Of a DNA stretch of 35,266 bases, positions 1 through 35,266 are shown piece after piece. Positions within the stretch are counted from its first letter, which is position 1; each line of letters opens with the position of its first letter. The translations under genes were made by a program, and so were the position numbers. The DNA lies in assembly GCA_048939245.1 (NCBI GenBank), contig JBHLPR010000023.1, positions 1 through 35,266 of the forward strand, in the 5' to 3' direction. The notes under the pieces were generated by a model that searched no databases, was not told the origin of the DNA, and saw only the letters and a list, made by a program, of their open reading frames with translations. The stretch is from Promethearchaeota archaeon. Lineage in GTDB: Archaea > Asgardarchaeota > Hermodarchaeia > Hermodarchaeales > Hermodarchaeaceae.

Positions 1-872
1 CCTCCTCCTGTTAGCACGATATCATTTGATAGTTCTCGCCGTATTGTAAAATCTGTTTGTTCGATGGAGTCAATTACCGCATCAATTAAACCTTTGTCCC
101 CGATTCCTATTAGCGAAGGGTCGAAAAGAACTTCAGGGGCTCTCCACGGTACTGTTCCCAAGGAGACGTTAATACCCTTACGTCGGTATTGCCATTCTCG
201 GGGAGTTTTTTTGTCTTTAGGATTAGGTCGCACTTGGCAGTAGTTCCGTTTGATGTATTCGATAGCTATAGGGTCAGTTGCAATTTTTGCATAATCTGAA
301 TACCGTGCTGAATTATTTGCAGTTTCTTCATATAACCGTCGTAGTGCAGCGGTGACGTAGAGACTTCCCGTGGCCGTATCTACAACATGTTCTCGAAGTA
401 AAAAGCCCTGATAAATCGGAGTGATCATTGAAAGCGTATGACCGATATCGACAACCATTCCGGTATGTTTTCCTAGAAAAAGGAGAGTGAGCACTTGCTG
501 ATAAGCTGCAAGGAGCTTTCGGCAGCCCAACTGATCTCGGAGTTCATCACATACATCATAAACACGATTTTGATTAACGGTTGAAAAAATAAGGAGCTGA
601 AGTTCGGTAGCAACTCGTTGAAAACCCCCGATAGCCATCTTATCAAAGACACCAAGAATTAGCGGTTTTAAGACCGAAGCATCAGGAAGATTTCCATTTT
701 CCATCGGAAAGAATTTTCCAATTCGAGTTGGATCCAAAGTGTTAAGGTAAGAATCTCCTGCCTTTTTTCCTTGGCTTTTCACATAAGCAGGGATTATTTT
801 AGGTCTTGTCTTGTCGGGGTAGCCATATTTGAGAAACCCGGTGCCTAAATCAATAATCAGGGGATTTTGCAT
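1..872 (-). CDS. Actin-related protein (eukaryotic actin/Arp family, Asgard-type), 3' end beyond the window edge
   Basis: Manual translation from ATG at 872 (GAGGAG SD just upstream) is open to base 1: MQNPLIIDLGTGFLKYG...FPMENG...YQQVLTLLFLGKHTGMVVDIGHTLSMITPIYQGF...IEYIKRNYCQV...SLGTVPWRAPEVLFDPSLIG...DSIEQTDFTIRRELSNDIVLTGG. These blocks are colinear with actin DNGSGMCKAG, YPIEHG, QAVLSLYASGRTTGIVxDSG..VPIYEGY, DIKEKLCYV, IGNERFRCPE.LFQPSFxG and IRKDLYANxVLSGG. Confidence 0.93.
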   Translation of the reverse strand, partial: MQNPLIIDLGTGFLKYGYPDKTRPKIIPAYVKSQGKKAGDSYLNTLDPTRIGKFFPMENGNLPDASVLKPLILGVFDKMAIGGFQRVATELQLLIFSTVNQNRVYDVCDELRDQLGCRKLLAAYQQVLTLLFLGKHTGMVVDIGHTLSMITPIYQGFLLREHVVDTATGSLYVTAALRRLYEETANNSARYSDYAKIATDPIAIEYIKRNYCQVRPNPKDKKTPREWQYRRKGINVSLGTVPWRAPEVLFDPSLIGIGDKGLIDAVIDSIEQTDFTIRRELSNDIVLTGG

Positions 873-906
873 GGATTCTCCTCAGATCTTCAACAGAAGA
901 AAGTGA

Positions 907-1722
907 TTATGGTTGAGTGAGTAGTGTGGAATAAGGTAATGTTGGCTCAATGAAATTAAATGTAACTTTGGGGAGTTCGACACGTAGAATTTGGGTTAAT
1001 CGGCTCATTCCTGGGATTTCAGTAGTTGTTTGAGGAAGTGCAACCAATTTAATTTTCAATTGATTAGCCTGGATTGCAAGCTCATGAGTTAGATGCCCTG
1101 TAAGATATGTATCATAACCCAGTTCCCAAGCGAGATGGAGCCACTCAGGAGTTATACCTTTCCCTGTAACCATTACGAGTTGTTCAACCTCGTCTTCTGC
1201 GTTCCCTACATAGTTAATGGATGGAATGTTCAGTCGTTTTGAGACATATTGGATGAACATCTTGAGGTTCGTCTCTTTTGGCACTTCACACACCCGGCCT
1301 AAGGGATGTAACTCACCGTGAAGAGGAACTTTGAAAACGTCATTAACTTTGAAGCCTAAGGCGTGAGCTAACACATCGTTCATTCCTCCGTCCACCATTG
1401 CCCAGTTGTAATGGGTAATATAGACTGTGATGTTGCGTTTTAACAGCTGTTGAAGAAGAAGCTGAGGCAAGCCAGTGAAAGTTTTGGCGGATGGCAGAAA
1501 TGGGGAGCGATGGGCTATGAGGAGTGTAGCTTTATGTTCGTCAGCTTGCACTATTACAGGGAGCGTGATATCGACACAAACGTCTACAGTAGAAATTCGA
1601 ACTCGCCGCAGTTTCGATTCATCACCGACGCCAAGAATTATTCCATCAACATCATTTTGAGGCACATATAAAGCAGGAGCCAATTTTCGTAAATTTAAAA
1701 TTACCTCCCATAATGTTGTCAT
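907..1722 (-). CDS. Nif3/YbgI-like (GTP cyclohydrolase I type 2 family) protein with degenerate metal-binding motifs
   Basis: LAP..NDVDGIILG, LLIAHR, VYITHYN..GGMNDVLAHALG, PLGRV, YLTG and TEIPGM follow the Nif3 motif order; 271 aa. Confidence 0.85.
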   Translation of the reverse strand: MTTLWEVILNLRKLAPALYVPQNDVDGIILGVGDESKLRRVRISTVDVCVDITLPVIVQADEHKATLLIAHRSPFLPSAKTFTGLPQLLLQQLLKRNITVYITHYNWAMVDGGMNDVLAHALGFKVNDVFKVPLHGELHPLGRVCEVPKETNLKMFIQYVSKRLNIPSINYVGNAEDEVEQLVMVTGKGITPEWLHLAWELGYDTYLTGHLTHELAIQANQLKIKLVALPQTTTEIPGMSRLTQILRVELPKVTFNFIEPTLPYSTLLTQP

Positions 1723-1821: not shown

Positions 1822-1878
1822 TCAGCTATGCTAGGCAACTCGAGGAGAAGCAGGAAAGTGCCCCGAGAGAATTCCCAA

Positions 1879-3237
1879 ATGAACATCAGTCGTGAAGAAG
1901 CTGCTGCTGAGGTGCTTTCCCTTTGGGAAGAGCAATCACAGTCACTTCGTGGCGCCATGAGACAATTAGCTGATGACTGGGAAATTCAGGATTGGCGAAT
2001 CCGAACTGCAATCCATAGTCTTGTGTTCGAAACCGCTCGGAGATTAAACACAATCGATTTCTTTCTCAACCATGTGCTTAGAAAAAGTCAAGTTACTGAC
2101 TTGGATCCTTTGACAAGGAACACTCTAAGAGTTGCCTCATATCTGATTCATTACACGGATACTGCTGCGGCGCTCGCAACAAATGAGGCTGTTTCAATAA
2201 TCAAGCGACAAAAAACGAAACGATTAGCAGGTCTAGTAAATGCGGTCCTACGCAAGGTCCAAAAGATAAACCGTGATAAACTTATCAAATCGTATCAAGA
2301 AAAAGACTGGCAGGAGCTCGAATATTCCGTTCCCCGATGGTTCTTCAAATACCTTAACCGTCTTCTAGGACCAGAAGAAGCGGAAGCCTTCTTATTTTCA
2401 AGTCTCCAAAACCCCTCAGTGTACATCCGCGTTAATACTCTTAATCAGAAGGCTAGTAAAACACTAAAACAGCTTGAAGGGGATCAATTTCTTTGCATCC
2501 CAACCTCAGAAGTCCCAGAGGCATTTAAAATCCAACGAGGTACGAGCCCAATAACCCAAACCGAAGCGTATGCTCAAAGCTCCATATACCTTCAGAGTCT
2601 GGCTAGTATGCTAGTTTCCCGAATATTGAGTCCAAACCCAACTGAGATTGTTATAGATTTATGTGCGGCACCTGGTAGCAAAACGTCACATCTTGCACAA
2701 TTAATGGGGAACAGGGGAAGTATTCTTACTCTCGATAATATACCAAGCCGTGTCCAAGAGATGTGTCGTAACCTTCATCGATTAGGCGTGCGTAACACTC
2801 ATGTGATTCTAGCCAATAGCTTCGAAGTTCCCTTCCGGGAGGGTTTCCAAGCGAAGTATCTACTCGTTGATCCGCCTTGCAGCAATACAGGTGTAATTCA
2901 GACCCGACCCGAAGTCAAATGGACGATGACCCCGAGTAAGATCCGTGTTCTAAGCAGGGTACAATCAAGCCTGCTCAATGAAGGGAGCAGGTATGTTTCG
3001 CCAGGCGGGTTTATAGTTTATTCCACGTGTTCGGTAACCTTAGATGAAAACGAGCATTTGATTCGCGATTTTCTAGATAGCAATCCCAGTTTTGAGTTAG
3101 TGCCAACGAACCCCCATCTTGGCTCAAGAGGTTTTGAAGGATTTGCACATTGCCAACGATTGTTCCCCCATCGAAATGACACGGAGGGATTCTTCATTGC
3201 AAAAATGCAACGGGTACAACGAGCGTCTAAAGGTTAG
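1879..3237 (+). CDS. rsmB: RsmB/Fmu-type RNA (cytosine-5) methyltransferase with N-terminal NusB-like domain
   Basis: NusB-like NEAVSIIK..AGLVNAVLRK; SAM motif DLCAAPGSKT; LVDPPCS and YSTCS cysteines; FPHRNDTEGFF. Start could also be GTG 1858 (ORF track gives 1828). Confidence 0.9.
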   Translation: MNISREEAAAEVLSLWEEQSQSLRGAMRQLADDWEIQDWRIRTAIHSLVFETARRLNTIDFFLNHVLRKSQVTDLDPLTRNTLRVASYLIHYTDTAAALATNEAVSIIKRQKTKRLAGLVNAVLRKVQKINRDKLIKSYQEKDWQELEYSVPRWFFKYLNRLLGPEEAEAFLFSSLQNPSVYIRVNTLNQKASKTLKQLEGDQFLCIPTSEVPEAFKIQRGTSPITQTEAYAQSSIYLQSLASMLVSRILSPNPTEIVIDLCAAPGSKTSHLAQLMGNRGSILTLDNIPSRVQEMCRNLHRLGVRNTHVILANSFEVPFREGFQAKYLLVDPPCSNTGVIQTRPEVKWTMTPSKIRVLSRVQSSLLNEGSRYVSPGGFIVYSTCSVTLDENEHLIRDFLDSNPSFELVPTNPHLGSRGFEGFAHCQRLFPHRNDTEGFFIAKMQRVQRASKG

Positions 3238-33790: not shown

Positions 33791-35266
33791 TTAGTAATCC
33801 CGCTTTGTTGTGAAGATTTGAGATAACATGGTCATGTACTTTCTTGAGACGCGAACATCTAACACATAGGGTTGACCGGATTCTGTGGCGCGTTTGAGTG
33901 CAGGTTGGATTTCAGCAGGTTTTGTGACGAGTTCGCCATTGGCTCCTAAACCTTTAGCCAGTTTATCTAATCGGGCCTGCTCATTGAGAAAGGTTCCACA
34001 GGATGCCTGCTCTTCTGAGCGCGTTTTGAGGAGTCGGGTATGATATACGAGCCCCCAGGCACAATCGTTGTTGACAATTGCAACAACCGGAATATTGTGA
34101 CGGACCGCGGTATCTAATTCACTGACATTGAATAAGAAGCTCCCATCGCCAGAGATAAGATAGACGGGGGTTTCAGGTCGAGCGAGCTTTGCAGCGAGGC
34201 TAATTGGTAATCCTGCGCCAAGATGACCGAGTGGTCCCTGTGACCCTATGATTTGACCGGGATAATTGGCGCGGAGATACAAGTAGGCCCATGCAGTTGT
34301 ATCGCCTCCATCTAAGACGAATAGACTATCTGGTGTAGCAAATTCACGGATTTCTCGCATGAGACGCTGTGGCTTGATTGGCGTTTCATCTGAATCTGCA
34401 TCTTTTTCAAGAACAGCAAACAGTTGTTCCCAAGCAGCCCGGGATTGTTTCGCGAAGCTTCCGGCAGCACGCTTTTTGGTTAATTCCCTTGCTGTGTGTA
34501 GCATCTGTTGTAATACTGCCTTTGCATCACCAAGTATCCCCACGGCAACAGGACGGTTTTTTCCGATAGCGTCGGCTACGATATCGACATGAATGAACTT
34601 TGCATCTTCTGAATAGAAAGAGGGGTCGCGTCCGAATCCTAAGAATTCGTCAAGCCGTGCCCCGATTGTGAGGATCACATCTGCTTGTCGTGTGAAAGGA
34701 TTAGCGATAGCATTGCCTATTGAGAGAGGATGATTTTGGGGGAAACAACCGGTTCCTAAATACTCGGCTGCTACGGGAGTTCCAAAGAACTCTGCGAATT
34801 TGACCAAGTCTTTACAGGCTTGAGACCAGTATACACCGCTTCCTGCAATGATCACTGGTCGTTCGGCTTTGGATAAAAGCGTAACCGCTTTCTTTACTAG
34901 ATTAGGGTCGCCAAGGAGGCGTCCAGTTGGGCGATATTGGGAGGGCTTTAATGGTGTTGCATCACTTGTTTTAGTAGGAGAAGCTATGATGTCCTTGGGA
35001 ATATCAAGGAGCACGGGAGCCATTCGTCCAGTAAGGGCGGCTTTAAACGCGGTTCGAAGATATTCAGCTATCCGATGTGGAAAAAGGCATCGTCGTGTCC
35101 ATTTGGTCACAGAAGAAACAAGAGCCTTCAAATCGAGGTCCTCAAAGGCATCCATATCTGCTAATTTGTGTGGGATACTTGAAGTGATGGCTACCACGGG
35201 GCTACCCATCTGATAGGCTTGTGCAAGGGCAGGAACAGCATTTACGATTCCTGGTCCCATTGGAAG
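33791..35266 (-). CDS. Thiamine-diphosphate-dependent enzyme (acetolactate synthase-like / 2-hydroxyacyl-CoA lyase-like), 5' end beyond the window
   Basis: GPGIVN, PVLLDIPKD, AERPVIIAGSG, IHVDI, LDGGD, GPLGHLGAGLP, ThDP motif GDGSF..VNN; frame open to the right edge. Confidence 0.9.
   Translation of the reverse strand, partial: LPMGPGIVNAVPALAQAYQMGSPVVAITSSIPHKLADMDAFEDLDLKALVSSVTKWTRRCLFPHRIAEYLRTAFKAALTGRMAPVLLDIPKDIIASPTKTSDATPLKPSQYRPTGRLLGDPNLVKKAVTLLSKAERPVIIAGSGVYWSQACKDLVKFAEFFGTPVAAEYLGTGCFPQNHPLSIGNAIANPFTRQADVILTIGARLDEFLGFGRDPSFYSEDAKFIHVDIVADAIGKNRPVAVGILGDAKAVLQQMLHTARELTKKRAAGSFAKQSRAAWEQLFAVLEKDADSDETPIKPQRLMREIREFATPDSLFVLDGGDTTAWAYLYLRANYPGQIIGSQGPLGHLGAGLPISLAAKLARPETPVYLISGDGSFLFNVSELDTAVRHNIPVVAIVNNDCAWGLVYHTRLLKTRSEEQASCGTFLNEQARLDKLAKGLGANGELVTKPAEIQPALKRATESGQPYVLDVRVSRKYMTMLSQIFTTKRDY

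Follow-up and report, generated by a model that had tools for sequence, protein, structure and literature searches.

ArpA, a minimal actin-related protein confined to one order of Hermodarchaeia, and its tandem paralogue ArpB

Results

The 35,266-nt contig of a Promethearchaeota archaeon (Hermodarchaeia) analyzed here, referred to as the window, begins inside an open reading frame for a divergent relative of actin, which we named ArpA. The window is contig C97 of a metagenome-assembled genome of 2.52 Mb, which comprises 122 contigs and is 88% complete. A sequence-only reading of this DNA had described an unannotated actin-related protein at positions 1-872, and the frame is indeed present, at window 3-872(-), where it runs for 290 codons from an ATG at 872 until the left window edge cuts it off. 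Extension of the contig leftwards, as that reading had proposed, completed the gene. Read in reverse complement, C88:1-77 agrees letter for letter with window 1-77, and beyond this 77-mer overlap the frame carries on into C88 for 47 further codons (C88:78-219(+)) up to a stop at C88:219, so that the window holds codons 1-290 of a protein of 337 aa. A full-length homologue, P0002, is also 337 aa long and is 96% identical to ArpA, and the final 72 aa of ArpA, which span the join, are letter-identical to the C-terminus of P0002. Since, in addition, an intact ArpA gene of 335-343 aa is found in 14 congeneric genomes, we treated the join between the window and C88 as sound. Window 1-1000 is also spanned by a 2111-nt Logan contig of the probable source samples, which extends past both ends of that stretch and gives no independent proof of the C88 join. 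A second actin-related gene, arpB (C88:340-1359(+), locus L004), starts 120 nt downstream of ArpA and encodes a protein of 339 aa which is 40% identical to it.

The window fragment of ArpA aligned with positions 5-334 of the 410-position Pfam Actin model (PF00022), scoring 91 bits at an E-value of 8.2e-26, and ArpB scored 120 bits, both of them exceeding the gathering cut-off of 27 bits. No match to PF06723 (MreB_Mbl) was obtained for ArpA, and ArpB reached only 13 bits against it, below the cut-off of 27. The AlphaFold2 (AF2) model of ArpA, obtained via P0002, had a mean predicted local distance difference test (pLDDT) of 91.9 and a predicted template modelling score (pTM) of 0.90, and the corresponding values for ArpB were 91.8 and 0.90. 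With the ArpA model every top Foldseek match was an actin, with template modelling (TM) scores of 0.81-0.84. Furthermore, we ran VIA-align with the ArpA model against 48,161 representatives. The highest Z, 34.6, was that with actin (root-mean-square deviation, rmsd, 3.2 A over 312 residues), followed by Arp7 (31.7, rmsd 2.3 A), Arp4 (31.6), crenactin (31.2), Arp3 (30.6), Arp8 (30.2) and the dynactin Arp (28.3), while MreB (25.4), Hsp70 (21.6), Ta0583 (20.9) and ParM (~20) ranked lower. When the ArpA sequence was compared with those of solved structures the best match was Arp1 (99 bits), then the HC1 Asgard actin (92 bits); Arp2 gave 78 bits, and neither Arp2 by sequence nor Arp3 by Z stood above actin or Arp1. 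ArpA is thus predicted to adopt the four-subdomain actin fold and to be closer to actin and the Arps than to MreB, ParM or Hsp70, and the earlier assignment to a divergent relative of eukaryote-type actin, rather than to the MreB/ParM type, is borne out by Pfam, Foldseek and VIA Z alike. The confidence of the AF2 model, together with a ratio of nonsynonymous to synonymous substitution rates (dN/dS) of ~0.06 among ArpA orthologues, argues that the frame is not a chance one.

Using P0002 as query (E<=1e-35), the ArpA/ArpB family was recovered from all 19 genomes of its GTDB order and from 0 of 381 other Asgard genomes. Among 1.84 billion representatives four other 50%-identity clusters scored above 250 bits, and the next match lay at 142 bits. 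ArpA/ArpB is a separate, lineage-specific family confined to one Hermodarchaeial order, and it is under strong purifying selection (dN/dS for ArpB was 0.13; synonymous divergence is near saturation). In a maximum likelihood (ML) tree of 104 rows, composed of 19 family sequences and 85 others including the Lokiactin of the host itself, the 19 family rows formed a single clade outside the other 85, with a Shimodaira-Hasegawa-like approximate likelihood ratio test (SH-aLRT) support of 100 and a stem of ~2 substitutions per site. The reference rows of this tree are unnamed representatives, and no specific sister group was identifiable among them. ArpA therefore does not fall among the Lokiactins: besides its separate clade, it is only 25% identical to the Lokiactin of the same genome, and the Lokiactin features of a full D-loop, TEAPLNP, DSGDGVTH and C-terminal helices are altered or absent in it. 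Inside the family ArpB formed a clade (support 97), and the single Arp of the sister genus joined ArpA (support 93, not starred). This position would place the duplication before the split of the two genera, with loss of ArpB from the sister genus, an order of events which is not secure. The nearest matches from outside the family were mixed and comprised fungal centractin/actin fusion models, an Anaeramoeba actin-7-related protein, ACTL7A and a Baldrarchaeia actin. The weak matches P0061, P0067, P0070, P0107, P0110, P0143 and P0157 were proteins of 1400-1830 aa with the actin domain at the extreme C-terminus, and those shorter matches whose origin was looked up (608-767 aa) came from gene models of eukaryotes, part of which are probably fusions.

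We checked the motifs of ArpA by translation and by alignment with the Lokiactin of the host. The phosphate-1 loop is kept as DLGTGFLK (window 828-851(-); equivalent to actin D11-K18), in which G12 and K15 are invariant across the family, D8 is nearly so, G10 is conserved and T11 is kept. The DSY motif that precedes the subdomain-2 helix is retained in ArpA. The sensor loop YPIEHG of actin corresponds to FFPMENG (window 693-713(-)), with P56 invariant, E58 nearly invariant and Asn in place of His73. As had been noticed from the sequence, there is no TEAPLNP, its place being taken by FSTVNQN with a deletion of two residues (window 567-587(-)), and the phosphate-2 loop DSGDGVTH has become DIGHTLSM (window 426-449(-)). 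In the latter D142 and G144, equivalent to D154 and G156 of actin, are kept, D157 is replaced by His, G158 by Thr and H161 by Met (or Ile); the loop reads DVGYTSTF in ArpB and DIGYSVSI in the sister genus. Loss of the His161 equivalent and retention of the catalytic Gln137 were likewise claimed correctly, the latter being Q125 (window 498-500(-)), which is invariant in the family. At the window end lie G289-G290 (window 3-8(-)), also invariant, with which the adenosine-binding LTGGGS loop starts (actin G301-G302). Overall, the family shows no or almost no variation at the equivalents of D11, G15, K18, Q137, D154, G156, G301 and G302, while the K336 equivalent is lost, as is that of E214 in ArpA. 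Because of the G158 to Thr replacement and the loss of the K336 and E214 equivalents, nucleotide binding is plausible and not certain.

Two further segments stand out by their conservation. No motif of the family is better conserved than the W-loop PIYQGFLL (window 396-419(-); PIYEGYAL in actin), which walls the target-binding cleft at the front, with P152 and G156 invariant and I153, Y154, F157, L158 and L159 nearly so; P152, I153, G156, F157 and L159 are common to ArpA and the Lokiactin of the host. The segment PEVLFDPSLIGIGDKGL (window 87-137(-)) corresponds to PEALFQP of actin together with the hydrophobic-plug loop. Its length equals that of the actin segment, and its conservation is high across ArpA, ArpB and the sister genus, E247, L249, F250 and P252 being invariant and G256, D259 and G261 nearly invariant.

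On the other hand, both elements that lock F-actin lengthwise are reduced or gone. From D8 of the phosphate-1 loop to G60 of the sensor loop ArpA has 53 residues, versus 64 in actin, and 7 of the 11 missing residues fall in the D-loop, where the stretch from P28 to D40 counts 11 aa as against 18 aa between P32 and D51 of actin, in agreement with the shortening reported earlier. The residual D-loop AYVKSQGKKAG (window 756-788(-)), of 11 residues, is polar and variable, and residues 31-40 are the least confident part of the ArpA model (pLDDT 68). At the other end, beyond the view of the window, ArpA and ArpB both stop just after the helix that starts at the W340 equivalent, and the alignment of the ArpA model with actin does not go beyond actin residue ~351. 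All members of the family thus lack the C-terminal helices, the last ~25 residues of actin, by which the barbed-end cleft is completed at its rear. With the D-loop tip and the C-terminal helices gone, both partners of the longitudinal lock of F-actin are missing, so ArpA lacks what an F-actin-type polymerizer uses, namely a hydrophobic D-loop inserted into a C-terminally completed barbed-end cleft.

ArpA has a basic, aromatic loop of its own in subdomain 4, RPNPKDKKTPREWQYRRKG (window 174-230(-)). In the model QV-RPNPKDKKTPREWQYRRKG-INV is a coil that takes the place of the subdomain-4 helix of actin. The net charge of the loop is +2 to +7 in 22 of 22 ArpA-type sequences and -6 to -7 in 7 of 7 ArpB sequences; the corresponding values are 0 for the single-copy sister genus and -1 for Lokiactin. 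Since the loop is neutral in the single-copy genus and acidic in ArpB, its basic character in ArpA appears to be a specialization acquired after the duplication and mirrored by the acidic loop of ArpB. The charges hint at a contact between ArpA and ArpB, or at two opposite partners, rather than at an ancestral nucleic-acid surface, and anionic lipids are a further conceivable ligand of such a loop.

ArpA lies in a co-oriented block which reads NIF3/DUF34, 34 nt, ArpA, 120 nt, ArpB, ~15 nt, s129, 13 nt, s148. The first gene (window 907-1722(-); PF01784, E 2e-36), whose product of 271 aa belongs to the NIF3/DUF34 family, ends 34 nt before the ArpA start and adjoins the Arp in both genera of the order. 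Upstream of it, and divergent from it, lies a gene for an rRNA methyltransferase of the NusB-RsmB/F type (469 aa, window 1828-3237(+)), a conserved neighbour in both genera as well. Each of the 14 congeneric genomes has ArpB in tandem behind ArpA, at a distance of 0.1-0.15 kb except for one insertion of 1.5 kb and two genomes in which the two genes are on separate contigs. In one related species a gene of 288 aa (L038:9330-10196(+)) is inserted between ArpA and ArpB, so the two need not be co-transcribed. Every relative examined keeps the block in synteny, and in the sister genus the locus consists of NIF3, one Arp, s129, s148 and m186. The last of these is a third gene for a helical protein, which lies on the other strand and is convergent on the block.

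The small helical proteins s129, s148 and m186 matched no Pfam family, producing only sub-threshold coiled-coil noise, and for s148 and m186 every ESM Atlas match was <0.9 and uninformative. The s148 protein (L004:1777-2223(+)) carries in this genus a polyproline N-terminus, PPKPPTPPPPEQP, for which Pfam returned neither WH2 nor any other family, and the motifs LIPF.TQAF and QRRSSVTH are invariant in it. The m186 protein (L004:2233-2793(-)) consists of a coiled coil, a variable linker rich in Pro, Thr, Ser and Lys, and an invariant C-terminal motif, WREKMREKYGLKKKPG, which can be written W-R/K-E-K/R-M-R/K-x-K-Y-G-L-K. Matches to a hidden Markov model (HMM) of m186 were confined to the 19 genomes of the order, and the strict motif WxExMxxKYGLK occurred once in each of these and in 0 of 381 other Asgard genomes. 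In its spacing the motif resembles the helix-plus-LKK consensus of WH2, while a search of the C-terminal 55 aa of m186 against Pfam at E<=10 gave no family, WH2 included. In other Asgard families the gene upstream of the helical pair was at one time considered to be of the Roadblock/LC7 type, an identity which found no support in Pfam and was dropped.

The Lokiactin of the host scores 432 bits against Pfam Actin and has both TEAPLNP and DSGDGVTH, and the genome codes in addition for profilin and two two-domain gelsolins. The sequence-only reading had taken ArpA as the main evidence that the host is an Asgard archaeon; the host is one, and the assignment does not depend on the ArpA frame, because Lokiactin, profilin and the gelsolins mark it too. 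ARPC4 (PF05856), the one ARPC subunit searched for, was not found in this 88%-complete genome by a search that had no positive control.

Discussion

We argue that ArpA is quite possibly a nucleotide-binding scaffold subunit which pairs with ArpB and works outside Lokiactin-type filaments, a reading that we favour and hold tentatively. ArpA would then be one half of a minimal actin pair specific to Hermodarchaeia, the two halves being duplicates of a fast-evolved branch, peculiar to this lineage, of the eukaryote-type actin/Arp stock. As the model and the alignments show, it has kept most of the residues that contact the nucleotide, as well as the fold of actin and the W-loop front of the target-binding cleft. 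ArpA would still bind ATP or ADP, with a hydrolysis that is probably slow or different for want of His161, and it would stay out of Lokiactin-type filaments. The charge-complementary loops of subdomain 4, which presumably arose after the duplication, would serve the pairing with ArpB, for which the tandem arrangement, the opposite and conserved loop charges and the tight spacing of ArpB, s129 and s148 argue. By analogy with eukaryotic Arp pairs mounted on a long helix, the pair may act together with the helical proteins encoded just downstream. The sequence-only reading had offered a monomer as one possibility; a tandem paralogue of 40% identity makes a pair at least as likely.

Several observations weigh against this explanation. 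The replacement of the phosphate-2 Gly158 by Thr and the loss of the K336 equivalent, and in ArpA of that of E214, bear on nucleotide binding. A single Arp copy suffices in the sister genus, which means that a heterodimer is not obligatory. Gene order is kept across the whole 17-kb region within the genus, so the adjacency of the genes is partly explained by close kinship. Full-length, distant homologues of s148 (E 1e-15 to 5e-4) occur in at least four other Asgard families that are without this Arp, and their loci (L070-L072) have a similar arrangement of helical genes with no actin or NIF3 gene adjoining; the helical module is therefore independent of ArpA/B and at least in part older than the Arp genes, and an obligate complex of Arp and helix is less supported for it. 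MreB, ParM and Ta0583, which are similar in size to ArpA, polymerize without a D-loop, and loss of the F-actin lock consequently does not exclude filaments. The earlier description of ArpA as non-polymerizing thus stands in one part: it is plausible for contacts of the F-actin type, which the model lacks, and unproven in general. A prediction of the complex of ArpA with ArpB, run as one job without controls, gave ipSAE scores of 0.00 and 0.02, which fall short of the mark, and counts neither for nor against pairing.

That ArpA, alone or alternating with ArpB, forms a non-canonical filament of its own, through contacts like those of MreB, ParM or crenactin, is in our estimate unlikely, yet it is the alternative that we take most seriously. 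It would amount to a second, lineage-specific cytomotive system, in which the helical neighbours would be regulators or adaptors as arcadins are for crenactin and ParR is for ParM. At 337-339 aa the two proteins have the size of polymerizing minimal actins, with Z values of ~25 to MreB and 31 to crenactin. The nucleotide site has been retained, purifying selection is strong, no surfaces are more conserved than the W-loop and the plug-equivalent loop, and most prokaryotic actin-fold cytoskeletal proteins do polymerize (PMC12050087). However, ArpA is structurally nearest to eukaryotic actin and the Arps, a group whose members for the most part do not self-polymerize, neither a membrane-targeting helix nor a gene for a DNA adaptor was recognized, and His161 is lost and the phosphate-2 Gly replaced. 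Less probable still, and rather doubtful to us, is that ArpA and ArpB attach to Lokiactin filament ends, where they would cap the pointed end or template nucleation in the manner of Arp2/3 or Arp11, accepting the D-loop of Lokiactin in the front of their cleft and offering none themselves. The conserved cleft front shared with Lokiactin and the loss of their own D-loop would suit such a role, as would the presence of Lokiactin, profilin and gelsolins in the genome, the polyproline N-terminus of s148 and the invariant, helix-plus-LKK-like end of m186. But the rear of the cleft is missing with the C-terminal ~25 residues, Pfam WH2 does not match m186, no ARPC4 homologue turned up in the uncontrolled search, and in a coimmunoprecipitation of Lokiactin from 'Ca. 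L. ossiferum' published in 2026 profilin, gelsolins and an ARF GTPase were enriched and no ARP was named among the listed interactors (PMC13716822). We consider it very unlikely that these elements combine, with an ArpA/ArpB heterodimer sitting on the adjacent helical proteins, or recruited by them, and nucleating Lokiactin or capping its pointed end. One helical protein would in that arrangement supply a polyproline arm and another a coiled coil followed by a disordered linker and by the invariant helix-LKK end, and the whole would be an independently evolved archaeal module of Arp plus activator, analogous to Arp2/3 with a nucleation-promoting factor.

The sequence-only reading had proposed a monomeric or scaffolding Arp, possibly associated with nucleic acid like nuclear Arps. 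On such a view ArpA would be a monomer associated with nucleic acid or chromatin, with the basic loop of subdomain 4 contacting DNA or RNA. The loop is indeed conserved as basic and aromatic in ArpA orthologues, the Z values to Arp4, Arp7 and Arp8 are 30-32, and an rRNA methyltransferase gene lies nearby. On the other hand, the basic loop from which the proposal was drawn has acidic counterparts in ArpB and neutral ones in the single-copy genus, so that its basic nature is not ancestral to the family, the conserved block contains neither a nucleic-acid-binding domain nor a gene for a chromatin remodeller, VIA Z gives nuclear Arps no advantage over actin or crenactin, and anionic lipids could serve the loop equally well as ligands. 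This proposal we regard as highly improbable.

When compared with known systems, ArpA finds its best structural match in actin and Lokiactin (PF00022; PDB 4pl7, 9wc4), with which it shares the fold, the phosphate-1 loop, Gln137, D154 and G156, the GG of the adenosine loop, PE.LF.P and the W-loop. Unlike them it has a D-loop that is 7 residues shorter and polar, it has lost TEAPLNP, His161, His73 and K336, it has a charged coil for the subdomain-4 helix, it misses the last ~25 residues, and it occurs in one order only. The eukaryotic Arp pairs (Arp7/Arp9-Rtt102-HSA and actin/Arp4-HSA; PDB 5tgc, 3qb0, 5nbl) resemble it in fold, as the Z values of 31.7 for Arp7 and 31.6 for Arp4 indicate, and ArpA and ArpB are likewise two divergent paralogues, encoded together beside genes for long helical proteins. 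No Snf2/HSA gene is present in the ArpA/ArpB block and no specific sister emerged in the tree, and the likeness is one of analogy only. Crenactin with its arcadins (the 'arcade' cluster of Pyrobaculum; PDB 4bql), and likewise ParM with ParR, also have an actin-fold gene clustered with small helical proteins, and crenactin is archaeal too; it is, however, ~430 aa long and forms filaments, and the helical genes beside ArpA are older than the Arp and are present in other Asgard families from which it is missing. MreB, ParM and Ta0583 are similar to ArpA in length (~320-345 aa) and in having neither a long D-loop nor a C-terminal extension, and they differ from it by their lower Z (25.4, ~20 and 20.9, respectively) and by the absence of a significant Pfam MreB match in ArpA. 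The three ARPs other than Lokiactin in 'Ca. L. ossiferum' are, like ArpA, lineage-restricted Asgard paralogues of unknown function that exist beside Lokiactin, and the paper on them gives only their phylogeny and their lower transcript levels (PMC9834061). The ArpA family is not orthologous to these Lokiarchaeial ARPs, as it was found in 0 of 381 genomes outside the order at E<=1e-35. The paper that named Hermodarchaeota makes no mention of actin (PMC8163825). Our literature search found no paper describing the ArpA/ArpB family, which is thus a family without a published description that we could find, within a class, that of divergent Asgard ARPs, which is already known.

Such divergent ARPs beside Lokiactin have, to our knowledge, no member with a known job. 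The family described here is compact (337 aa), universal in one order and modelled with confidence, it is without exactly the two elements that lock F-actin end to end, and a recent duplication has given it oppositely charged loops. ArpA and ArpB therefore offer a tractable system for how the actin fold turns from a filament former into something else, the same question that is raised by the origin of the eukaryotic Arps. The restriction of the family to Hermodarchaeia implies little direct bearing on eukaryogenesis.

Exact terminal 77-mers of the kind that joins the window to C88 are also shared between the 3' end of C88 and the 3' end of C47, and between the right end of the window (35190-35266) and the 3' end of C105. 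The assembly could be scaffolded further from its graph.

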